From the NCBI RefSeq assembly GCF_024223415.1, contig NZ_CP100501.1: a stretch of 64,000 nucleotides of DNA; one strand, given 5' to 3'. Origin of the DNA: Escherichia coli. Its GTDB lineage: Bacteria > Pseudomonadota > Gammaproteobacteria > Enterobacterales > Enterobacteriaceae. The notes beneath the pieces are model-generated. The model did not search any database, was not told the DNA's origin, and saw only the letters and a list, made by a program, of their open reading frames with translations. Numbering within the stretch: position 1 is the first letter of the stretch; the number at the start of each line of letters is the position of its first letter. A program made the translations under genes and the position numbers. Positions 9,267-58,689 of the stretch are shown here, in pieces.

Positions 9267-10365
9267 TGTGATTATCCTCGGTATCTGTGGCTTTCAGGAA
9301 CAGGCTGACGGTAGTGGCGTCTTTCAGGATGCCGGACGGCAGGTGCCAGCCGGTATCGGATAACACCCATGGGGTACCGCCAAAACCGAACTGGCGGAAA
9401 GCCTGGTTATTGACATCGATGGCAGCACGAGCAGCGGTCAGACACTTTTCATCCGGTGCAGCCGGTGCATCGCCGGTGGGTGCCATACCACCGTCTGCGG
9501 AATACAGCTGATGCCATCCGGTCGCCCGTTTTTGTGCGTCCGGTTCACACAGCAGTGGCGCAGTCCGGTTTGTGCTGGCCTCTCCGCCGATTACGGAGAC
9601 CGGATAAATCACCACGCTGAATTCCCGGGCCAGTTGCTTAAGCGCGGGCTCCAGAAGACGGCAGTTGATGCATGCGGGGTCAAGGAAGGCGTAGAGTGTG
9701 CGTTCATGACCAGTGGAGAGATTAATGGTGAACATACCCCGGTCCGCGTTGCGTTTAAGTACAGTGGCCAGATTACGGCGGGCTTCAGCGACCAGAGTAT
9801 TTTTGTCTGCTGTTATCGCCGGGGTAGCGGATGTCTCCTGCATTTCCTGTGATGCCGGGTGAACGATTTCATTTTTCGTCTCTGACGGGGCTACTGACCG
9901 GACAATTTCCTTGTCGATGTGTAATGGTGCTGTTTCTGTTACGGATTCTGTGACAGGTACCCTGAGAGGGGAATCGCTGTCCGGTTTCAGTAAAATATAT
10001 CCGGCTGTTACCGCTGTCAGAAGTGCCAGCACTAATCCTGCACCGTATATCAGCCCTCTCATGAAGCTGGTTTTCCGGGCAGGAAGTTCTGCATATGCCG
10101 CGCTCAGACAGCTGTCAATCGCGGAGAGCATTCTGCCGATGTGATGTCCGGGACGTTCAGTATCAACGGTATCAACAAGCAGTGTTTCGGTTATTTCACG
10201 AAAAGGGGTGCTGAAGGACAGGTGCATCAGCCTGTTATTACGGTTAATCAGTGCGCCCAGTTCTGTAACCGGCAGGATGGCAATAACCTCCTGACCACCG
10301 TCAGGGTACAGGGCGGTCAGGGACAGGTGTTTATTGTTCAGTGTTGCAGTGTAGCGGATGGTCAT
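9247..10365 (-). CDS. trbB: periplasmic thioredoxin-fold protein, DsbC-like disulfide isomerase (TrbB-like)
   Basis: CxxC motif (CINC) within LDPACINCRLLEP; TM/signal-anchor segment; start overlaps trbA stop (ATGA); true start may be internal. Confidence 0.65.
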   Translation of the reverse strand: MTIRYTATLNNKHLSLTALYPDGGQEVIAILPVTELGALINRNNRLMHLSFSTPFREITETLLVDTVDTERPGHHIGRMLSAIDSCLSAAYAELPARKTSFMRGLIYGAGLVLALLTAVTAGYILLKPDSDSPLRVPVTESVTETAPLHIDKEIVRSVAPSETKNEIVHPASQEMQETSATPAITADKNTLVAEARRNLATVLKRNADRGMFTINLSTGHERTLYAFLDPACINCRLLEPALKQLAREFSVVIYPVSVIGGEASTNRTAPLLCEPDAQKRATGWHQLYSADGGMAPTGDAPAAPDEKCLTAARAAIDVNNQAFRQFGFGGTPWVLSDTGWHLPSGILKDATTVSLFLKATDTEDNHNEPASR

Positions 10366-11696
10366 TGTGCTTTTTCCTTGTCGGCGGGATGCTGTTTTTC
10401 GGTGGTTTCGGTGGTTTCGGTGGTTTCGGTGGTTTCGGTGGTTTCGGTGGTTTCGGTGGTTTCGGTGGTTTCGGTGGTTTCACCAGTGTCAGTGTCTTCG
10501 TCGTTATCATGGCGGCGGGGTATCACGTCATCCGTGAGTGACCAGCGGGTCCTGATCTGACGTTTACGATCGCGATCTGGCTGAGGTTCGTCCCATATCA
10601 GGCCCAGCCCCAGCATGTCCCGTCGAAGCCCTTCAATGGCCTCTTCCACACAGGGTTCCGGGCAGGGGAGGCCGAGACGGCTGGCTTCATTTTCTGCCCG
10701 GGCAACGGCCACCACGCCGGCCCCTTCGATGAAGCCTTTTGTGGTGTTTGCCCGGTGAAGGGCATAGAAGAGCGTCCGGTCAACGCCCTTGAGCCACAGC
10801 CAGTTCGGAGGCGTCAGGCGCAAATCATGTGCGTAAAGCCAGACCAGACCGCTGCGAACGTAACGGTGCTGCCTGAGCCACTTTTGTGCGCCTTCTGTTT
10901 TGATGACCCGGATAAAGGCGTTTCTGGCCAGTGAATACACCGGCGTGCTGAAACGCCCCTGGTCCCGTTTACTTTTGAGCCTGCAGGAGAGATTGAGGTT
11001 GTTCATCAGGGCTACCGCTGCTTTCCGGTCACCGAGGAAGAACTGCAGGCCAAAGATGGCAAAGAGCGCTTTTTCATGTGGGGCCATGTCTTTCCAGCTG
11101 GTCAGTGGTTGCCCCAGTTGCGCCATGAAGCACTGGCGTGTGGACGCAACATCGAGCTGCATGTTGCGGATAAGGTTGTTCTGCTCCACAAAGGCTTCGG
11201 GGGTTAGTGCGACACGGCGCTCGGGACGTTTTTGTCCGTGGAAGAGTCTGTTGTTGTCTCCGTCAGCCAGAACGGGGGCGATCGCCGGTGACAGAGCTGA
11301 AAAAATATGGGGCAGTGTGTGGATATTCAGTGGCCTGCGGGTAAAACGGGGCTGGGCCGGATGGTGAAACCACATCCACAGAAAGCCGAATGTCATGGGA
11401 AGCAGAATCAGCCAGAGGATCCCCACTGTCCGGGACATAACATCCAGCCACTGGCTGAAAGTGATGGTTGCCGCGTTGTTAGCAGTGATGGCCAGCAGGT
11501 TGTAACGGGGGACGGCAAAGTTGTGAAAGGGCCCCCAGTCAATCATGCCCCACAGTGTGTGCAGGATCAGGCAGGAGGCGAAGACGATTTCAGGTAAAAA
11601 GCGCCAGATGATAATCGCAAAGAGCAGGCATATGGCACCGACGATATACCATATAGCCATTGGATCTTCGGCGGCAGACGTCTGTTGGTAAGACAC
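10362..11696 (-). CDS. trbA: TrbA-like inner-membrane transfer protein (DotM/IcmP-like partner of the coupling protein) with C-terminal TTE tandem repeat
   Basis: 444-aa product with N-terminal TM helices; gene order trbA-trbB-trbC; C-terminus contains (TTE)x9 encoded by a 9-bp repeat. Confidence 0.6.
   Translation of the reverse strand: MSYQQTSAAEDPMAIWYIVGAICLLFAIIIWRFLPEIVFASCLILHTLWGMIDWGPFHNFAVPRYNLLAITANNAATITFSQWLDVMSRTVGILWLILLPMTFGFLWMWFHHPAQPRFTRRPLNIHTLPHIFSALSPAIAPVLADGDNNRLFHGQKRPERRVALTPEAFVEQNNLIRNMQLDVASTRQCFMAQLGQPLTSWKDMAPHEKALFAIFGLQFFLGDRKAAVALMNNLNLSCRLKSKRDQGRFSTPVYSLARNAFIRVIKTEGAQKWLRQHRYVRSGLVWLYAHDLRLTPPNWLWLKGVDRTLFYALHRANTTKGFIEGAGVVAVARAENEASRLGLPCPEPCVEEAIEGLRRDMLGLGLIWDEPQPDRDRKRQIRTRWSLTDDVIPRRHDNDEDTDTGETTETTETTETTETTETTETTETTETTEKQHPADKEKAQ
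10401..10481. repeat. 9-bp tandem repeat GGTGGTTTC x9 (encodes ETT/TTE repeats at the TrbA C-terminus on the minus strand)
   Basis: Read directly from sequence. Confidence 0.85.
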
Positions 11697-14145: not shown

Positions 14146-14529
14146 TCACACCTCGTCCTTTTTATGCGGGTATCTGGACAGAATATTGAGCGCCTGTAAT
14201 GGCGCTTCATGCATTTCACGGATACAACGGGCATCGGTGATATTTTCCCGGTAATGTGTGGTTTCCAGCATCATATGATGCATATGGAGCATCCGGGCCA
14301 GGGCTGCGCGGAGTTCTTCAATATGTTGTTCATGGGAATGCTGGCGGGGCTGTATCCGGCAGAGAGGGATAACCTCCACATCATCCGGGTGCGCGCGAAG
14401 CCACGCGTCAGTGACTGCAATGTCGTCAGTGTAAAACCATGTGCCGGATGTCCCGTTGGCCAGAAAACGCATTTTCCAGGCTTCTGGGGTGGCGGTTGTG
14501 TTGTTATCTTTCATGGTGCCACCACTCAT
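14146..14529 (-). CDS. hypothetical protein (127 aa)
   Basis: ORF with start overlapping the stop of the upstream ORF (14526..14529). Confidence 0.45.
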   Translation of the reverse strand: MSGGTMKDNNTTATPEAWKMRFLANGTSGTWFYTDDIAVTDAWLRAHPDDVEVIPLCRIQPRQHSHEQHIEELRAALARMLHMHHMMLETTHYRENITDARCIREMHEAPLQALNILSRYPHKKDEV

Positions 14530-14717
14530 TCAACAGGCTTAATGCTGTCCAGGCGCAGTCTGCTCAGACTGTCGTGGCTGCCACAGCGGCGTCCAGTGCT
14601 TTTGCTGTAGCACTCCTGCCCCCTGATACACCATGCCGTTGGCGTTTCGTAGAGGCTGACACGTCGGGTTTTATCTTTAATGATGAGAAGCCCGGTGTGA
14701 GTTTTTGTCTTTTTCAT
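14526..14717 (-). CDS. hypothetical small protein (63 aa)
   Basis: First ORF of the coupled array; lysine-rich. Confidence 0.35.
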   Translation of the reverse strand: MKKTKTHTGLLIIKDKTRRVSLYETPTAWCIRGQECYSKSTGRRCGSHDSLSRLRLDSIKPVE

Positions 14718-14971
14718 CGGTGGGGTACAAACGCAGAAATTTTGTTGTCATTACATCATCAGTTTTAGCCTGCAGAGACGCTGAAAAATCAGCGTTTTCA
14801 GACCCTGTTCAGGTTAGTGAATATTCTTGCCTGGCCTTTCGGCAATATCAATCCCCTGATGTGTGCACACGTAGTCACTTTCCGGCTTTATTTCTGTCCC
14901 TGACACAAAATACGTGGTGGCATGAAAAGGATTGTGGCGGACAGGAAAACGATTAGAATAGCGGCGGGCGC

Positions 14972-15265
14972 TTGAGGCTGTATGCCGAAAGCGTTTTGTG
15001 GACGGCATGTAGCAGAAAGCCCCAGGCGATTTTTTTATCAATCAACCCAGGGCCCACTGTAATGCCTAGACAACATTATAGTAGCCCGATGACGGCCGAA
15101 AGGCAATGGAGGGGCTGCGATGCCACAACGAACGTTTTTAATGATGTTAATCGTCGTCTGTGTGACGATACTGTGTTTTGTCTGGATGGTGAGGGATTCG
15201 CTTTGCGGATTTCGTATCGAGCAGGGAAATACGGTGCTTGTGGCAACGTTAGCCTACGAAGTTAA
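14972..15265 (+). CDS. pndC: pndC/mok-like leader reading frame overlapping the Hok-type toxin gene
   Basis: ORF in a different frame that overlaps pndA almost completely, as in hok/mok and pndA/pndC loci; start uncertain. Confidence 0.5.
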   Translation: MRLYAESVLWTACSRKPQAIFLSINPGPTVMPRQHYSSPMTAERQWRGCDATTNVFNDVNRRLCDDTVFCLDGEGFALRISYRAGKYGACGNVSLRS

Positions 15266-15272
15266 ACGTTAA
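15120..15272 (+). CDS. pndA: Hok/Gef-family type I toxin PndA (50 aa)
   Basis: Translated by hand: MPQRTFLMMLIVVCVTILCFVWMVRDSLCGFRIEQGNTVLVATLAYEVKR; not in the ORF track because it is short. Confidence 0.85.
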   Translation: MPQRTFLMMLIVVCVTILCFVWMVRDSLCGFRIEQGNTVLVATLAYEVKR

Positions 15273-15409
15273 CGGGCAACACGGCGGTAGAGAATCTGCC
15301 GCCGGATTGTTGCGAAGGCTGACCTCAATGCGCCTTGTTTGTCTTTTTTACCGGACGACTGCTGGTTGCTGCTGTCCGGCAGCTATTATTTTTTCCGTCC
15401 TGTGCGTCA

Positions 15410-45820: not shown

Positions 45821-46079
45821 TTCACCTCCGTGCGGTTCATATGTTAAGTCTAAAGAGCGTGTTTACTGAACGGAAACGAGTTATTTCGATCGTTATGATC
45901 GAGTGTGTTTCAAGAGTGCTTTTAACTCTGTTTTAAGCGTGAATGAAAAGGATTCGGACAGGACGTGATTTAGTATGCCGCTGGTCTGGCATTATGCTGC
46001 AGAGCAGACGGAGTCAGGAGATTGAAAGTATTTCGTTATATAATCTTTTCCTTTTCGGGATGAAATCAACGAGGTTCGT

Positions 46080-46400
46080 ATGAAAATTAAACAGCATAAA
46101 GAAAAACTGGAGATTATAAGGGATATTATTCGAGAGACGCTGTTGGGTAATGCTGCTCTTATTGTTCTGGCAGCCATGGTTCCGGTTGTACTGGTGAAAC
46201 CATGGGATTCGATGACATTTATTTTTATGGGGGCCGTGTGTGTTTCTTTTGCAGTCATTCTGTTTTGGCTGGTTTATATAGTTTGTTTGTATATAGGAAC
46301 GCTTGTAAAGAATATTTTTATAAGGATTTTTGCTTTTTCTATTTGGGCCCTTTCTGCTGAGGGGGCAATTATTTATAACATGATAAAGATATTATCATAG
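46080..46400 (+). CDS. hypothetical small membrane protein (AT-rich)
   Basis: 106-aa ORF with three hydrophobic segments; opposite strand to the surrounding operons. Confidence 0.35.
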   Translation: MKIKQHKEKLEIIRDIIRETLLGNAALIVLAAMVPVVLVKPWDSMTFIFMGAVCVSFAVILFWLVYIVCLYIGTLVKNIFIRIFAFSIWALSAEGAIIYNMIKILS

Positions 46401-46491: not shown

Positions 46492-46812
46492 TTATTTGGC
46501 ATCCCTTATCTCGCCCATTAGCAGGCGGATACGCAGCCAGGTGTCATGATCCAGAACAGGTGATGGTGTTACCATGCAAGCACAGTGCCCGATGGCGAGC
46601 GTATCAAGGAAGCGTTTTGCATCGCTGGCACTTTCATATTCACCAGTATGGATCAACATCCACCTTTGCCCCAACGCTGATTCGGTGTGAATTGGTTGCG
46701 AGAATGCGATTGTGTAAACGTCTTCAATTGTAACGATACGATTATTATCCGCAGTGGCTGCACGGGAGGATAAGTGTTTCATAAAGGGTCTCATAGCGTT
46801 AATTTTGAACAA
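46492..46812 (-). CDS. hypothetical protein immediately downstream of rci
   Basis: 106-aa ORF; start close to the rci stop. Confidence 0.35.
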   Translation of the reverse strand: MFKINAMRPFMKHLSSRAATADNNRIVTIEDVYTIAFSQPIHTESALGQRWMLIHTGEYESASDAKRFLDTLAIGHCACMVTPSPVLDHDTWLRIRLLMGEIRDAK

Positions 46813-46823
46813 AAATTATTTGT

Positions 46824-47993
46824 TCAGGAGGAGGATATGAAAATACTGTTCGCTTTTGTCATGAACTGGCTGTTTGTTAACGGACAAATCATGACCCGTT
46901 CATCAATGTTTGCGGGTAGCTCGCCTGGTGTGGGGACGCGTTCACCCCGCTGAGCAGCCTGGGCCAGTGCGCGCAGCAACAATACGCTGGCGTGAGATAT
47001 TGCCAGTTCCCGGGTTTCAGCACGGCTTTCAAGGTCGAAATCGTGCAGTGTCACAATGAACACTCCGTTTCTGTTTCTGACAGTTGCAGGGTAGGGAACA
47101 AAATAAGGGGAAATTTTGCTGGTCTGTTTACGCCTTGCATCGAGTTTACTGACCAGGTGATATGCCCGGAGATGTGTGTACCGTTTCAACATGTTCAGGG
47201 AGCGGTGACCGGAAATGGCTGCAATCTCCATAACGTTCAGTGTGCCGAGCTCGAACAGACGGCTGATGGCCTCATGGCGGAGATCGTGAAAATGCAGATT
47301 TTCTATTTTCAGATCCAGAAGAGCGGTACGCCAGGCGCTTTTGAAACCGGACGAGGTGTAATTGAACACATTGCCGTTTATCTGTTGTGGCAGAATTTGC
47401 AGGTAGTTACGTGCTTTCCGGGAGAGTGGTACGTCGCGTGGTGAGCCATTTTTCGTTTCAGGAAGATGCGCCACGCCGTGCTGCAAATCGAGGTGTTCCC
47501 AGCGTAATGAGAGAATTTCTCCCTGGCGCATTGCTGTTTCCAGAGCCAGATGGAAGATAACGTAGAGCTGCGGATTTTTGTCCCTGAAATAGCGGGAAAG
47601 GCGGCGTTCTTCACCAGAAGTCAGTCGGCGGTCGCGGCCATTACTGATTTTCGGTTTTCGGACCAGTTCAACAGGATTCATACGGCATGTTCCCCATTCC
47701 ACACGGGCGATATTGAATAATGATGATAAAAGGGCAAGTTCAAGACGGACGGTATTTCCGGTGATTTGACGCCCTGTTCGTGGGTTAATTTGAGCTAAAC
47801 GCTGATCCCGGTAACCGGCGATATCAATGGTAGTGATTTCATCCATATAGCGCTCGGCCATAGGGTGACGTTTAATCACATTGACGCGATAAAACTCCTG
47901 CAGATGACCTTTTTTATGGACGGAAACGGTTTTCAGGTATTTGTCCAGCGCCCGGTTGAGAGTCATTTTGCGAATTTTGATTTTTCGAAACAT
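46824..47993 (-). CDS. rci: shufflon-specific tyrosine recombinase Rci
   Basis: Start taken at [30 protein letters not shown]...; C-terminal catalytic region with HxxRH and Tyr ([10 protein letters not shown]...LKRYTHL); adjacent to 19-bp sfx repeats. Confidence 0.85.
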
Positions 47994-48055
47994 ATCTGCC
48001 TTCCACGATAAAAACGGGGAAGGTAGGAATAGTGAAACGGAAATGCAATATCGCC

Positions 48056-48074
48056 GTGCCAATCCGGTTTGTGG
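48056..48074 (+). repeat. shufflon sfx 19-bp repeat (GTGCCAATCCGGTTTGTGG)
   Basis: Matches the recalled sfx pattern GTGCCAATCCGG followed by a variable arm. Confidence 0.8.
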
Positions 48075-48281
48075 CTTGGAGGCAATAAAGTGAACTATTC
48101 TGCCTGTAAATGGTATGAAGCGACCTCCGCACATTTTATCGGTGGCAGAAGTGGAGGTTCTATTTATTACAAGCCGATTCAGTGCCCTGCCGGGTACGTC
48201 ATGACAGGTACAAGAATGTACGGCATCGGAGATGGTGTTGATGAAGAGCACGTCGATGCTTACTGTTGCCCTTTTGGTTAG
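48069..48281 (+). other. alternative PilV C-terminal coding segment carried on the invertible shufflon segment (silent in this orientation)
   Basis: Cys-rich ORF on the opposite strand inside the sfx-bounded segment. Confidence 0.6.
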
Positions 48282-49525
48282 ATTCCGGCACCAGGAAGGT
48301 TGAGGCATGTGACTGATATGGTCCCACCAGACTCATAATTTCCCCAAGCATAATTACTCACATACCAAACGTTGTTTTGGTCGGAATATACCTGTTGAAA
48401 ACCACCAAAGGGTGAGCCATTCAGGTAAGTCCATGAGCAATATGCATGGACCCCGAGCCTTAAATTACGAGTGTTTTTAGCTATGTTGTAGGTCTGCGTT
48501 GTGAATTGAATTTTAGGAGCGCCCCAGGTACCGGATTGGCACGAAAGTATTGCCCCTTTACTGTCGCGGCCTACAAGTCCGTCCGGTGAGCAGGAAGTAC
48601 CTGCGGTGGCTGTTTTTTCCAGCTGTAAATACTCACCTGTGGAAAGACGACCGTCAGACCGGATCGTTCCACCGCTGACTTTGCCCCCTTTGATTTCACC
48701 ACCGGTGGTGATCCCTTTGTTATTGACGGCGCGTATCCACTGGCTGTCCGTCATGGTGAAACCGCCTCCGTGCGTCGTGTTCATCCACCCCTTGTTGTTT
48801 CTGGTGATAAGCCAGCCGTCTTCGCTGGTTATATAGCCTTTCACCGTGGCTTTCTGACCATTGAGGTTACCGGCGTTATTGATGTCATTTCCGCCCATGT
48901 TGATAGCTGTGTGCATCTGGTTCAGCTCTGATCTCCCCGGGACCTGGAAACGATACAACCTGTCGCTTTCCTGCAGATCATCACCCGTCATGACGACGGC
49001 AATGTGACCTGCCGAACAGGTGAGTCCGTAATCCCCCGGTTTGTCTGTCCAGGCGCCGAATGCGCCGGTTGCTGTTCCGTTTTTACCAATATAACCACCC
49101 AGCCCGGGAAGCAGTCCTGCCACACTGCGCAGACCATCTTCTTTGATATTCTGCCCCCCTGTTGAGCAGGTCAGGGCTTCAAGACGTCCTGTAGTCTGGT
49201 TACGGCGGATACCCGTGATATAACTCTGCCCAAACGGAGAATGATTAAATCCCTGTTTCAGGTATCCCTTGCGAATCAAATCATCGGCTGTAAAGTTTGC
49301 CGGAAGGCTGCCGTTGTGCAGAGTGGCATTGTTATCGGCAATGTAATTTCTGGCTGCGGTATTGTAGGCATCTGCATGAGAAGCAGCACTCTGGTAAAGC
49401 TGTTCATTCAGCCAGTTTTCTATTTCGGAATAAATCAGCGGCGTGGCGATACCAATCACTATCAGTCCCGCCAGTATTTCAAGCAGAATAAAACCTTTGT
49501 CGTCATCGTGTCTGAACTTTTTCAC
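48278..49525 (-). CDS. pilV: PilV thin-pilus adhesin/minor pilin with shufflon-encoded C-terminus
   Basis: Prepilin-like N-terminus ([17 protein letters not shown]); Gly-rich body; 3-prime 80 codons lie inside the invertible segment. Confidence 0.8.
48524..48542 (-). repeat. shufflon sfx 19-bp repeat in inverted orientation (reverse complement GTGCCAATCCGGTACCTGG)
   Basis: Read directly; lies at the constant/variable junction of pilV. Confidence 0.8.
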
Positions 49526-50229
49526 GTGAATATCTCCGAAGTGCGGAAAACGGAATCAGGGAGGAGGGTTAGTGCATACAGTGATGCGCAGAGAAACGGG
49601 GCGAACGGCAGTGCCTGCTGATGTCTGTGACGGCAGAAGAGGAGGATAAACAGAAATGCCCCGGAAGCTGCGGCGGTGATTAGCAGCGGCGTGTGTTGTG
49701 GCTGTGTCCACATTGCAATTCCTGCTATCAGGAATACATCACCAAGGCCGAGTGCTTCTGTTCCTTTTGCCGTTATGAAAAACTGCCGTAGCAGGTATGT
49801 CATGCCGAACCAGAGTGATGCGTTGAGGAGGCTGTATGTGAGCTCCTCCAGGCTGTACCTGAACGCTGCCCCCAGAACAATCAGTGAAAGCGTGAATATC
49901 CGGGGAAGCCGACAGACGGCGATGTCCGTCAGCGTCATTACAGTTAATAATCCCGTCAGAATGGAAAGGAATAACAGCCCCGTGGCTTCAACACCATATG
50001 CGCCGTTGAGGCTGACACTCACTATGGCCAGAAGGCAACACACGTACACCACCGGCCTGGGCGGCCGGGTGTCGTGTACTGCTGACAGGTAGAGAGCGGC
50101 GGTGATGTATGCAAGATAAAGAATAACCGCCAGGATGATGATTATTATTGTCATGCTCAGTAATGCGCTCACCGTCACCTCGTATTTATTAATATTGTCT
50201 GAAATACCGGTTGTGGATTTTTCGGGCAT
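49522..50229 (-). CDS. pilU: PilU prepilin peptidase
   Basis: Polytopic membrane protein in the expected position between pilT and pilV; start may be internal. Confidence 0.65.
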   Translation of the reverse strand: MPEKSTTGISDNINKYEVTVSALLSMTIIIIILAVILYLAYITAALYLSAVHDTRPPRPVVYVCCLLAIVSVSLNGAYGVEATGLLFLSILTGLLTVMTLTDIAVCRLPRIFTLSLIVLGAAFRYSLEELTYSLLNASLWFGMTYLLRQFFITAKGTEALGLGDVFLIAGIAMWTQPQHTPLLITAAASGAFLFILLFCRHRHQQALPFAPFLCASLYALTLLPDSVFRTSEIFT

Positions 50230-51309: not shown

Positions 51310-52476
51310 TTATTGTTTCAGCATGTCGCTGATACTGTAGATGGCAGATATCATGTTAAGAATAAAAAAGAAGACAAAACCTCCTGATATACCAGTAATA
51401 ATTAATCCAATTCGTTTTACCCGTTTTTTTGCTTCCTCCAGCCACTGATCGGCATAGAGTGCCATGGTTGCCACACTGTCCTCCCTTTCGGAGTTCAGGA
51501 GCAGTTTATTGATGCATATTCTGGACGGAAAATCGTAACCGGAATTTCGCATTGCTGTGGCCAGATTCTGACCGGATAATACATGTTTTCGTATTGCCTG
51601 AATTCTCTCCTTTAACCATTTATTCTTTTCTGCACCTTTTTCCATTCGGAGCAGCGCCTGCGAAAGAGGAATATTAATCTGCAGCATGGATGAAATACTG
51701 AACAGATAATTCACCCCGTGTAAGGTCTGATACAGTGACCAGGGGGGAGCCTTGTCCAGCATCCTCCGGCCGGGGCCGGTATACCGGCTGAATGAAAAAC
51801 GGATCAGAAGCGTCAGGGCGAAAATGGTCCCACAGAGCCAGAATCCGTACCCGATGAAAAATTCCGACATGCCGGCAAGCAATTTCATCTGGAATGACCA
51901 TTTATCTTCTGAAGCAAACGCACTGACGATGGGGATGATACGGGTATGGGCGTTGTACATATTCACCACACAGAGCGAAAGCAGCAGAAGGGGGTAGAGG
52001 CAGACGGCAATGAGGCTGGATGTCATTTCCCGCCGGGCTTTAACGGTTCTGGCCACCTGGAAAAGGGCGTCGGCAATATTCCCGCGCTCTTCCCCGTTTC
52101 TGATTAACGTGGCTTCCTCCGGTGGCACCCAGGTGAACAGGGCACCGGATAACATGCCGCTGGCTTTGATGGACGCGATGCATTCTTTTGCCAGAAAATA
52201 CATGCCGGATGTGCCTTTCTTTTCACCAAAATCGGTTTCGATCTCGCAGAGAAATTCGAGGGCACGCAGGGACGGCGTTCCGTCACGTATCATGCCGCCC
52301 AGGGCTTCGTAGAACTCCACCCGGTTCAGGGCAAAGGTTTTTCTGGCCATCCAGATGGTCAGCGCTGTCAGCTCAATGTCGGTGCTGTTGAGTTTTTCCA
52401 GAAATTTCATATCAGTGCAGCAGCGTATAGCTGTCCTCATCGACGGGAGAGATGTAATGGGCCGCCAGCGGATCAA
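51310..52476 (-). CDS. pilR: PilR inner-membrane platform protein (GspF/PilC-like)
   Basis: 388-aa polytopic membrane protein directly downstream of the ATPase gene. Confidence 0.7.
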   Translation of the reverse strand: MIRWRPITSLPSMRTAIRCCTDMKFLEKLNSTDIELTALTIWMARKTFALNRVEFYEALGGMIRDGTPSLRALEFLCEIETDFGEKKGTSGMYFLAKECIASIKASGMLSGALFTWVPPEEATLIRNGEERGNIADALFQVARTVKARREMTSSLIAVCLYPLLLLSLCVVNMYNAHTRIIPIVSAFASEDKWSFQMKLLAGMSEFFIGYGFWLCGTIFALTLLIRFSFSRYTGPGRRMLDKAPPWSLYQTLHGVNYLFSISSMLQINIPLSQALLRMEKGAEKNKWLKERIQAIRKHVLSGQNLATAMRNSGYDFPSRICINKLLLNSEREDSVATMALYADQWLEEAKKRVKRIGLIITGISGGFVFFFILNMISAIYSISDMLKQ

Positions 52477-53920
52477 CCTGTCCGCTGTTGATTTTTCCCA
52501 GCAGATGCTGATTACGGGTCATTCCGCCCAGTTCCCGGTGCCAGTAGGTTCTGGCCTCGATACGCCCCTTTTCCCGGTACAACTGGAAAAAACGCGCATC
52601 CGGGGAGATAACTTCTGCGATCACCGTTCGCCCCGTCACGCCACGCCAGCAGTGCGGGCAGCCGTCATGGTTTCGCAGATATACCTGGTCCGGGTTACAG
52701 ACGCTTTCCACCAGGCGCCGTTCATCATCCGTGCGCTCGGTAGCCACCTCATGCCAGGGGCGACGGCAGTGCGGACATATCAGCTGAACCAGACGCTGGC
52801 TCAGCAGGCCAATGAACAGTTGCGGGTCGGCAATCATCCTGGCCTGTACCCCCTCCATCTCAAGACGTTCGAGGATGTTAATCGGGTCGTTCGCATGAAT
52901 GGTGGTCAGCATCAGATGGCCGGTCATGGCGGCTTTTATTGCCGTAATGGCGGAATCGTGGTCGCGGATTTCACCGTTCAGGATCCCGTCGGGGTCAAGA
53001 CGCAGTGCCGATTTGATGGAGTCCACCCAGCCCTGCGCGGTATCCATGACGGCGGTCTGAATGGCACCGGGTATACGGCCCTCTGGCGGGGATTCAATGG
53101 TGAACAGCCTGCGACGGGGCAGAAGAATACCGCCGGTATTGTTGAAGCCGTACTGTTCAAGGTACGCCGCAGAGGCGGTTCTCAGCGTGGTGGATTTTCC
53201 TGAGCCGGTGGGGCCTGAGAGCGTGATAATGCCTTCAGGGCGCTGCAGAATGCGGCGAAGAGTGCGCTCCTGGTCAGGGTGATAGCCCAGCATACTGAAG
53301 GTCGGGATTTGCTGACTGTCATCCTTGATCAGACGGAGCACAGCATAGAGGCCGCCCACACAGGGGTAGTGGGAGTAGCGTGCACCAAACAGACCGGCCA
53401 GTTTCAGATACTGCTCTGAAAGACGTGCATCCTGAGGCACCCCGGGATCAAACTGTGTGCCCTTGATAACATCGGTCATGCCGGAATAGGTGGCCCCCAG
53501 TAATTCGAGGCCTTCTTCTTTCCGGAGGATATCGAGCACTTCCAGTTCGCCGTGAACCCGGGCTTCCACATAGGTGAAGTCCGTGTTGTCTCGTCCCGGG
53601 GTCATATGAAGGTCTGAGGCACCAAGAGAGGCAGAATGGCGGATATAGCCGAGCATTTTTTGCTGTACCGGGTTAATGACGCTTTCATCACCGGCGGTTG
53701 TGGTGTCCTGTCTGAGGCGGGCTATCACATCCAGGGTGGTGAATTCAAAGTCTCCCACACGCCCCTGATGACGTGCGCGCAGGCGGGTCAGATATTCCTG
53801 GACGGCACGCAGATGTTTTTTTCCCTCCACGACCCTGACCCGCAGATGACCGGTTTTATCTGTGTCGATAGCCACATAATCCAGAATGTCATCCGGTGGC
53901 AGGTCTGCAGGATCCAACAT
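52412..53920 (-). CDS. pilQ: PilQ type IV pilus assembly ATPase (GspE/PilB family)
   Basis: Walker A SGPTGSGKST; tetra-Cys motif CPHC...CPHC. Confidence 0.8.
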   Translation of the reverse strand: MLDPADLPPDDILDYVAIDTDKTGHLRVRVVEGKKHLRAVQEYLTRLRARHQGRVGDFEFTTLDVIARLRQDTTTAGDESVINPVQQKMLGYIRHSASLGASDLHMTPGRDNTDFTYVEARVHGELEVLDILRKEEGLELLGATYSGMTDVIKGTQFDPGVPQDARLSEQYLKLAGLFGARYSHYPCVGGLYAVLRLIKDDSQQIPTFSMLGYHPDQERTLRRILQRPEGIITLSGPTGSGKSTTLRTASAAYLEQYGFNNTGGILLPRRRLFTIESPPEGRIPGAIQTAVMDTAQGWVDSIKSALRLDPDGILNGEIRDHDSAITAIKAAMTGHLMLTTIHANDPINILERLEMEGVQARMIADPQLFIGLLSQRLVQLICPHCRRPWHEVATERTDDERRLVESVCNPDQVYLRNHDGCPHCWRGVTGRTVIAEVISPDARFFQLYREKGRIEARTYWHRELGGMTRNQHLLGKINSGQVDPLAAHYISPVDEDSYTLLH

Positions 53921-57069: not shown

Positions 57070-58689
57070 TCAGATGATATTGGGCGTGATCAGCACCACG
57101 AGAATGGTGTCGTCGTTTTCACTGTTGATCCCACCGCCAAGACCGAAGAATCCCGGCGTGCCTACACCCTGTTTTCCGCTGCGACGTCCTGACTGCTGGA
57201 AGCCACTGATAATGACCGTCTGCCCGGATTTCAGATCCACGGTCTGATTGATGGTTTTCAGATCCACATTCGGCAGCTGGGCTTTACTTCCACCGCTCTC
57301 ATAATTCTCAATAACTGGTTTGTCGGAGAGACTCATGGAATAGAGCAACTGCAGTGTCTGTGAGTCCGGGAGAATGAACGGCAGAAGGGTCATGTTAAAA
57401 CCGGTGGTGATGGTGGCCGCATTCAGGGAGGTGGATGAGCCGACATTGGCAGTGGTATCCGTCGTCACACTCTCGATGTAACTCTGCTGATTGGCGATCT
57501 GCATTGGCACCGGCGTCAGGTTTTTGGTGACGGCAGAGTTCTGGGTCACCACACTGACATCCCCCTGGGAAGACAATGCTTTCAGGAAGGCTTTTGAACC
57601 GGTGAGTTTACCGTCCACAATGGAAACACCACCTGTGATGGCATCACTGGCTGCACTGGTGAATGTGCTGCCGAGACTCAGTCCCAGCGTTCTGTCGCTG
57701 AAGACTGCGTTCCAGTCGATACCGGCCTGCTCATTGCGGGTTTTCCGGATACTCAGAATTTCCACATTCAGCACTACCTGACGTCTCATCTCTTCATTGC
57801 GTTTTTCAATGAATGCCCGGACCGTTTCCAGAACCTGTGGATTATCTGTGACGGTGATAAAGCCCGTGGACATGAACATGCGTCCGATACCCGGGGTCAG
57901 CATTGATGTGACCGCATTTTTCACATCCTGATACAGCGCAGACTTCATATCCACGGTGGTGGTCTGGGTATTGCTGGCATCACCGGAAATGGCATCTGAT
58001 GCACTGCCTCCTGATGAGCCGTTTGAGGACATGGTGCCGCTGACCACAGTGGCGTTATAGGTCACCTGACTGTCCATATAAGTGATGGGGAAGGTCTGTG
58101 TCTCGAGATAATAGAAGATGATATGCGAGCCGTCATAGCGCCAGGATATACCGAGACGGGAGGAGACCGCATTCAGCAGGGTCGTCAGGCCGGAGGCATT
58201 CAGTTCAGACAGTGCTGCGGTATTTCCCGGCAGACGGGATGATGGCGTGTCAGATGCGCCAATGGCGGCAAGGGGAACCATGCCGCTTGCATCCGGTGGG
58301 GGTAACGCGCCCTGGATTTGTTGTGTGCTGCCGGTTGTGGATGTATTCAGGTATGTCAGTACATCAGGTGTGATCCGTACAGGAATATGGCAGCTTTCCG
58401 TGATCCGCTGAACCACCTGCTGAAGGGTGATGCTCTGACGGGTATGAATGACAATGGGACAACCGGGAACGGTTTTGCCGGTGTTTTTATCCATGACCGG
58501 ACGGGGATTGATCCATTGTCGTGATGATTCCTTAACAACCGGCGTCCGGGTTCGCAGATCAGACATCATTTCCCGTGCCCGTTGTTGTTCCGCAACGGCT
58601 TCCTTTCTTGTGCTCTCAAGCTCTCTGTAACTGGCACAGCCCTGTAACAGAGCGGCGGCAATCATAATGGCAAGAATTTTTTTATTCAT
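57070..58689 (-). CDS. pilN: PilN secretin-family outer-membrane lipoprotein
   Basis: Lipobox LLQGC; 539 aa; C-terminal region resembles secretin domains. Confidence 0.7.
   Translation of the reverse strand: MNKKILAIMIAAALLQGCASYRELESTRKEAVAEQQRAREMMSDLRTRTPVVKESSRQWINPRPVMDKNTGKTVPGCPIVIHTRQSITLQQVVQRITESCHIPVRITPDVLTYLNTSTTGSTQQIQGALPPPDASGMVPLAAIGASDTPSSRLPGNTAALSELNASGLTTLLNAVSSRLGISWRYDGSHIIFYYLETQTFPITYMDSQVTYNATVVSGTMSSNGSSGGSASDAISGDASNTQTTTVDMKSALYQDVKNAVTSMLTPGIGRMFMSTGFITVTDNPQVLETVRAFIEKRNEEMRRQVVLNVEILSIRKTRNEQAGIDWNAVFSDRTLGLSLGSTFTSAASDAITGGVSIVDGKLTGSKAFLKALSSQGDVSVVTQNSAVTKNLTPVPMQIANQQSYIESVTTDTTANVGSSTSLNAATITTGFNMTLLPFILPDSQTLQLLYSMSLSDKPVIENYESGGSKAQLPNVDLKTINQTVDLKSGQTVIISGFQQSGRRSGKQGVGTPGFFGLGGGINSENDDTILVVLITPNII

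Follow-up and report, generated by a model that had tools for sequence, protein, structure and literature searches.

The C-terminal variants of the pilus protein PilV act as adhesins for recipient LPS-core structures in liquid mating (PMC5430464), and they are exchanged by the shufflon, a DNA inversion system acting on the 3' end of pilV. The recombinase Rci binds the conserved right arm of an sfx site, recruits a second monomer to its non-conserved left arm and exchanges strands at the 7-bp core between them (PMC11852207, PMC5350095). Since the sfx sites are asymmetric, Rci inverts rather than excises the intervening DNA (PMC11852207, PMC5350095). Forms with only two sites are still called shufflons in the literature (PMC5350095, PMC3817090). 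Such two-site shufflons occur in 3 of 7 IncK2 plasmids, where they were confirmed by PCR and Sanger sequencing (PMC5350095), and a one-segment shufflon is known in the IncZ plasmid pO26-CRL125 (PMC3817090). PMC3817090 also cites S. Typhi and ICESe4 among the known one-segment, two-site shufflons, and the IncI2 plasmid pMRY15-131_2 has two PilV forms (PMC5430464).

Here we analyse a stretch of 64,000 nucleotides of Escherichia coli DNA (the window), whose best matches, for the most part E. coli plasmids of poultry and human origin, identify it as the part of an I-complex plasmid (IncK2/Z, MOBP, MPF_I) that encodes transfer and pilus functions. A preliminary description of the window had proposed a shufflon reduced to a single invertible segment. 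We conclude that the locus is very probably a working, minimal one-segment shufflon on an I-complex (IncK2/Z-type) conjugative plasmid, switching between two PilV forms, PilV-C and PilV-C'.

The rci-pilV junction and its recombination sites

The features of the locus, in coordinates of the window, are:

46824-47993, minus strand: rci, the shufflon-specific tyrosine recombinase, an uninterrupted ORF of 389 codons whose true start is the ATG at 47993
48056-48074, plus strand: sfx-L, the rci-proximal site, GTGCCAATCCGGTTTGTGG, a perfect match to the consensus
48056-48067: conserved 12-bp right arm of sfx-L, GTGCCAATCCGG
48068-48074: 7-bp core of sfx-L, TTTGTGG
48075-48086: variable left arm of sfx-L, running on into the segment
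48524-48542, minus strand: sfx-R, the pilV-proximal site, GTGCCAATCCGGTACCTGG, a perfect match to the consensus
48531-48542: right arm of sfx-R, GTGCCAATCCGG
48524-48530: core of sfx-R, TACCTGG
48068-48530: invertible DNA from core to core, 463 bp, homologous to R64 segment C in an alignment with R64, pCh101, PS16002 and p1534306_1
48278-48541, minus strand: PilV-C, the currently fused C-terminus, ending NLPGAGI before the stop
48057-48281, plus strand: PilV-C', the silent alternative C-terminus, ending CCPFG before the stop
48543-49525, minus strand: constant region of pilV, with a type-IV prepilin leader (...|FILLE) followed by the Shufflon_N domain
48278-49525, minus strand: whole pilV as sequenced, 415 aa
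49522-60232, minus strand: thin-pilus (type IVb) operon upstream of pilV, comprising pilU, pilT, pilS, pilR, pilQ, two ORFs and pilP-pilL

The surroundings of the two sites are those of a shufflon on an I-complex plasmid. The rci gene had been described as apparently intact, and the open ORF bears this out: its product shares 75% identity with R64 Rci across 373 aa, C-terminal extension included, matches the Pfam Phage_integrase model (PF00589, E=1.4e-24) and retains the catalytic residues R156, H236, R239 and Y272. In PilV, the Pfam Shufflon_N matches (E=2.5e-60 and 1.3e-47) end at residue 332, that is, at sfx, the sfx-encoded CQSGTW starting at residue 329; up to this motif the constant region shares 42% identity with R64 PilV. 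The pil operon continues beyond its two ORFs with pilP, pilO, pilN, pilM and pilL, every ORF being open, in a gene order that agrees with the R64 and pCh101 annotations. NCBIfam matches within it include the PilN secretin, PilP, a GspE-like ATPase, a GspF-like protein, a pilin and a transglycosylase, and tra/trb genes flank it. The locus thus combines an adjacent Rci, inverted sfx sites, an in-frame pilV 3' end and a type IVb pil operon of an I-complex plasmid; with one segment only, it is not a multiple inversion system in the sense of at least two segments.

Both sfx sites conform to the consensus 19-mer GTGCCAATCCGGTNNNTGG, which consists of the 12-bp arm and a 7-bp core, TNNNTGG, and has 16 specified bases. 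They stand inverted between rci and the constant part of pilV, with the conserved arms pointing outward as in R64, at exactly the coordinates given in the preliminary description. About 3e-5 chance occurrences of the 16-base pattern are expected in 64 kb on both strands, so that chance does not account for a perfect inverted pair, 487 bp apart, where rci meets pilV.

A search of the whole window for the 12-mer GTGCCAATCCGG on both strands, with up to 2 mismatches, returned 4 matches against 7.3 expected by chance. Two are the perfect copies at 48056 (+) and 48531 (-); the other two, at 57499 and 62185, have 2 mismatches each, are distant from the shufflon and are at chance level. A scan of 46500-50000 with the 19-mer consensus, allowing up to 7 mismatches, found no third site better than 5 mismatches in 16 between rci and pilV. 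Two candidates for degenerate sfx were considered, one within the segment (48414-48432; 5/16 mismatches) and one at the junction of the two ORFs (48277-48295; 6/16 mismatches). Both were rejected, because genuine sfx sites are always perfect and such scores are at chance level window-wide; the consensus is matched perfectly by all 7 R64 sites and by every sfx in 16 related plasmid loci. The earlier count of only two sfx sites thus withstands a systematic search.

The two sites differ in their cores, TTTGTGG and TACCTGG being unlike at three positions. The sfx-R 19-mer is found unchanged three times in R64. The sfx-L core is absent among the R64 cores; the site with this core corresponds to 'repeat-h' of IncK2 plasmids, where it was first named (PMC5350095). 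Across the plasmids compared, a given core stays attached to one and the same end of a segment: TTTGTGG is invariably found beside the start of C'.

As a side observation, the inverted repeat of pECOED-type plasmids runs 11 bp past the sfx arm on both flanks, reading GCAATACTTTC GTGCCAATCCGG (locus positions 2830-2864 and 3482-3516). The window shares only GCAATA of this extension, since its rci-side flank reads GCAATATCGCC.

The invertible segment and its two PilV C-termini

The segment measures 487 bp with both sfx included; the repeats enclose 449 bp, and the conserved 12-bp arms 463 bp. Its earlier description as 'about 470 bp' was a fair one. It does carry the two opposing C-terminal options that had been recognised in it. 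The sfx is read in frame, encoding CQSG(T/L)W, and the C and C' ORFs are convergent, both in frame with it, C being the expressed option and C' the silent one. PilV as sequenced continues past sfx into an 81-residue tail. In silico inversion between the 12-bp arms yields an uninterrupted PilV-C' of 402 aa.

The comparison with the R64 C-termini that had been suggested identifies these options as C and C'. PilV-C, counted from the sfx cysteine, is identical to the R64 segment C ORF at 86 of 86 aa, and PilV-C' to the convergent R64 C' ORF at 62 of 75 (83%). Annotated homologues are labelled 'shufflon protein C' in pZPK-H21 and 'shufflon protein C'' in CP104418; NCBIfam has no model for the variable C-termini. 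Both options being homologous and their annotated homologues being named C and C', we regard the segment as the homologue of R64 segment C. The ligand of PilV-C is GlcNAc(b1-7)Hep, and that of PilV-C' is Glc(a1-2)Glc or Glc(a1-2)Gal (PMC5430464). By analogy with these assignments, C and C' would give distinct recipient specificities in this plasmid as well; with only 83% identity, the receptor of this C' may differ from that of R64. A promoter and terminator scan of the region gave nothing above shuffled expectation.

In the mechanism that we propose, Rci, encoded just downstream of pilV, would bind the 12-bp arms of both inverted sfx sites, and strand exchange at the adjoining 7-bp cores would flip the 463-bp piece. 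Because the sfx lies within the pilV reading frame (CQSG-x-W), each flip would give the adhesin at the tip of the thin pilus a different set of ~70-85 C-terminal residues. The sequenced orientation would produce PilV-C of 415 aa and the other orientation PilV-C' of 402 aa. A donor population would then be a mixture of two adhesin types, which, by analogy with R64, would recognise different recipient LPS-core structures in liquid mating. The earlier suggestion that a one-segment shufflon restricts the switching of recipient specificity to two states agrees with the presence of two sfx sites, one segment and two C-termini. The pilV gene should accordingly be annotated here as one of two phase-variable forms.

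The window itself shows one orientation only, and evidence for inversion comes from its relatives. The C segment next to rci is oriented as in the window in some IncK2/Z relatives (H58-H63) and is reversed in others (H146-H149). CP088704 contains the very junction predicted for the window after inversion, ...CCTCCAAGCCACAAACCGGATTGGCACGAAAGTATTGCCCC..., with the same type of pilV constant region and with C' fused to it. In the pECOED-like plasmids, the sequence of the 655-bp segment is identical in the four plasmids that were aligned, and by the length of pilV (413 or 457 aa) three plasmids have it each way. Comparison of sequences thus indicates, indirectly, that inversion of this segment, with these cores, takes place in related plasmids and that one-segment shufflons flip; that this very copy flips we infer.

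A different reading is that the switch is a frozen remnant, as reported for S. Paratyphi C, which no longer flips and expresses PilV-C permanently. It could appeal to the single orientation seen, to the two cores being unlike at three positions, and to the existence of locked derivatives such as pJNQH940-1, with one sfx and no rci. Yet neither the 12-bp arms nor the invariant core positions show any mismatch, the product of the intact rci retains every catalytic residue, and the silent C' ORF is uninterrupted and identical to copies in other plasmids. As for the cores, those on either side of the C segment of R64 are likewise unlike at three positions (TCGGTGG and TACCTGG), so that unlike cores are no obstacle to inversion, and in relatives C segments found both ways have the pair of TTTGTGG and a TA(C/T)CTGG-type core at their ends. 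With perfect sites and an intact rci, we consider a frozen switch very improbable and retain the working two-state shufflon as our reading.

Another possibility is that the switch is working but serves mainly as a governor of expression, rapid inversion lowering PilV synthesis and thereby modulating pilus-mediated aggregation, with the C-termini secondary. Such a role was reportedly proposed by Tam, Hackett and Morris (Infect Immun 2004/2005) for the one-segment shufflon of S. Typhi. The S. Typhi architecture is alike, with rci downstream of a single segment that two inverted 19-bp repeats enclose (bioRxiv 10.1101/2025.10.13.681940). Against this stand the position of the present element in the thin-pilus operon of a conjugative plasmid, the identity of the C option with an R64 adhesin that has a defined LPS ligand, and the published work on R64, pCT and TP114, in which PilV variants set recipient specificity (PMC5350095, PMC9045228). 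An effect on expression is compatible with the switching of adhesins and is secondary in a conjugation pilus; as the principal function of this shufflon we hold it to be unlikely.

Related plasmids and the origin of the one-segment state

Counting sfx sites between rci and pilV in each record gave the following:

R64: 7 sfx, 4 segments
PS16002 plasmid (NZ_CP141250) and pZPK-H21: 8 sfx
p1534306_1: 6 sfx
pCh101, CP088704 and CP061259: 4 sfx
pLS45-2: 2 sfx
pECOED and five pECOED-like plasmids: 2 sfx, one 655-bp segment
Salmonella plasmid pJNQH940-1: 1 sfx, no rci

The R64 count bears out the four segments given for R64 in the preliminary description. Most IncK2/Z relatives have 2-4 segments. Among the pECOED-like plasmids, sampled for the window's type of pilV constant region, 6 of 9 have 2 sfx and one segment (NC_011754, CP088549, CP088788, NZ_CP103647, NZ_CP053733 and NZ_CP082096); pLS45-2 shares this architecture. 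A further pECOED-like locus, in the Salmonella Enteritidis plasmid pJNQH940-1 (NZ_CP136142, locus 2137-3000), retains one sfx only and has no rci annotated, which fixes its PilV in a single form; it shows that complete loss of a shufflon does occur in nature.

Closest to the window among the records is pCh101 (NZ_CP127318), whose backbone is 98-99% identical over 41 kb and whose rci and segment C are identical to those of the window at 1743 of 1743 bases. With its 4 sfx, it has segment C in the same place and orientation, and an extra A-type segment (582 bp) follows. These 582 bp, which in pCh101 separate two sfx of direct orientation, are exactly what is missing from the window.

Some further differences between the two plasmids lie outside the shufflon. 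pCh101 has an IS2 insertion upstream of rci that is absent from the window (45900-46080, against pCh101 locus 7033-8261). Its PLSDB gene table, which is incomplete, shows a split pilR and no pilQ (locus 14253-15352, against 51310-53920 of the window); the pilR and pilQ ORFs are intact in the window, whose pilus operon may be more intact than that of pCh101. Elsewhere in the window, a perfect 9-bp tandem repeat, (TTTCGGTGG)n, of ~10 copies lies at 10397-10482 within a trbA-homologous ORF (10362-11696, minus strand), where it encodes a short peptide repeat that could vary in length. Long inverted repeats at 1-1375 and 5214-6569 bracket ~3.8 kb, with identities of 100% over 48 nt, 95% over 418 nt and 93% over 882 nt. 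They overlap ORFs 488-1333 and 5256-6146, where the best plasmid matches list IS3-family transposases, and may be two diverged IS copies in inverted orientation.

A difference of exactly one sfx-bounded unit, 582 bp, from the nearest relative is also what an assembly artefact could leave: the real plasmid would have at least two segments, for example C and the A-type segment of pCh101, one of which the assembler collapsed or dropped, given a shufflon that varies within the culture and has repeated sfx at its borders. Misassembly of shufflons is documented (Brouwer et al. 2015, as cited in PMC5430464 and PMC7341882), and a Citrobacter werkmanii draft contig of 1262 bp, BBMW01000028, starts and ends exactly in sfx, so that short-read assemblies do break there. 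Further, no record of the same C-only shufflon in either orientation was found in PLSDB or among RefSeq complete E. coli genomes, and a metagenome pattern scan for the one-segment architecture gave 0 matches; among public records the C-only structure of this window is without independent confirmation. An sfx scan of a genome collection (298 Gb) returned 118 stretches, nearly all of them single chance matches in unrelated phyla. A 16-base pattern should turn up about that often in this amount of DNA, and the scan was of little use as a census; real sfx arrays among the stretches came only from Citrobacter and a few metagenome-assembled genomes.

On the other side, the junctions in the window are clean and both reading frames are kept. 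Two-sfx shufflons of IncK2 plasmids have been verified by PCR and Sanger sequencing (PMC5350095), and two-sfx shufflons recur in many independently sequenced complete plasmids, pECOED included. Moreover, the window is not simply pCh101 minus a segment, because its pilV flank is of a different lineage. We therefore regard an artefact as unlikely, though it is the main caveat to the one-segment state.

The lineage of the pilV flank also bears on how this state arose. The tract 48617-48740, 75-200 bp beyond sfx-R, has 20 substitutions relative to pCh101 and 1 relative to pECOED; the differences from pCh101 alter 5 PilV residues at positions 275-303. The pilV constant region beside sfx is 99.2% identical to that of pECOED-like plasmids. 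From its sequence, the tract looks like a patch of recombination or conversion abutting the shufflon. The segment itself (48075-48523) is a mosaic. Its C' half is identical to that of the IncK2/Z plasmids PS16002, CP088704, CP061259 and pLS45-2; its C half is identical to R64 and unlike these four plasmids. The breakpoints lie near the convergent stop codons, at ~48280-48320, and pLS45-2 has kept the C' half next to a second half of unrelated sequence.

We considered a clean deletion by Rci-type recombination between directly oriented sfx of a parent resembling pCh101; the difference of 582 bp fits, but the 20 substitutions past sfx argue against it. Since the pilV sequence beside sfx belongs to a different lineage, the history must be more complex than a clean sfx-by-sfx deletion. 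Most likely, recombination at sfx or close to it removed or replaced neighbouring segments and so left a single one. Of the earlier description of the shufflon as 'reduced', what stands is its plausibility, pCh101 having one more segment and most relatives two to four; the polarity, loss as against gain, is unproven.

A more speculative version of this history is that shufflon ends are traded as cassettes between co-resident I-complex plasmids, and that one-segment forms are products of such trading rather than of simple decay. One crossover would occur at sfx, through intermolecular recombination by Rci, and the other by homologous recombination nearby. The combination of a pilV tract of pECOED lineage with rci and segment C of pCh101 type, and the differing lineages of the C' and C halves, make such an exchange conceivable, though on balance we think it improbable.

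Comparison with described shufflons

Which bacteria can receive an I-complex resistance plasmid, in liquid as well as in the gut, is set by the shufflon. With PilV-C and PilV-C' as its only choices, a plasmid is expected to reach fewer or other recipients than relatives that choose among six to eight; this is relevant to forecasts of plasmid spread. For plasmid phylogeny, differences in the shufflon are unsuited.

Compared with R64 (IncI1), the locus has the same sfx arm and core pattern, the same order of pilV, shufflon and rci, the same in-frame CQSG-x-W and a homologous segment C. It differs in scale, with 2 sfx, 1 segment and 2 C-termini as against the 7 sfx, 4 segments and 7 C-termini of R64. 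Closer in size are pTMSA970, pTMSA992 and p5312.29, IncK2 plasmids of the same plasmid group that also have two recombination sites (Seiffert et al. 2017, PMC5350095). Their sites are two copies of repeat-e (core TTCGTGG) around a different segment, whereas the window combines repeat-h and an R64-type TACCTGG site around segment C. The pECOED-like IncK2/Z plasmids likewise have two sfx and one invertible segment, with both orientations on record; their 655-bp segment encodes a different pair of C-termini, and their rci DNA is 93% identical to that of the window. In the IncZ plasmids pO26-CRL125 and pO111-CRL115, the distance from rci to pilV is ~446 bp longer than in the window and the segment content differs (Table S1, PMC3817090); this spacing rules out that the window is either of these plasmids. 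By description, the S. Typhi SPI-7 and IncI2 pMRY15-131_2 systems likewise have Rci and one invertible unit, and switch PilV between two states. The S. Typhi switch resides on a chromosomal island and acts in adhesion and self-association, and pMRY15-131_2 has a different sfx variant and different segments.

One-segment, two-site shufflons are thus already published for IncK2, IncZ, IncI2 and S. Typhi, and they are common in public IncK2/Z plasmids. The observation made in the preliminary description is real and was correctly interpreted, but it is an ordinary one: segment C standing alone between repeat-h and a TACCTGG site is a minor permutation of known parts.
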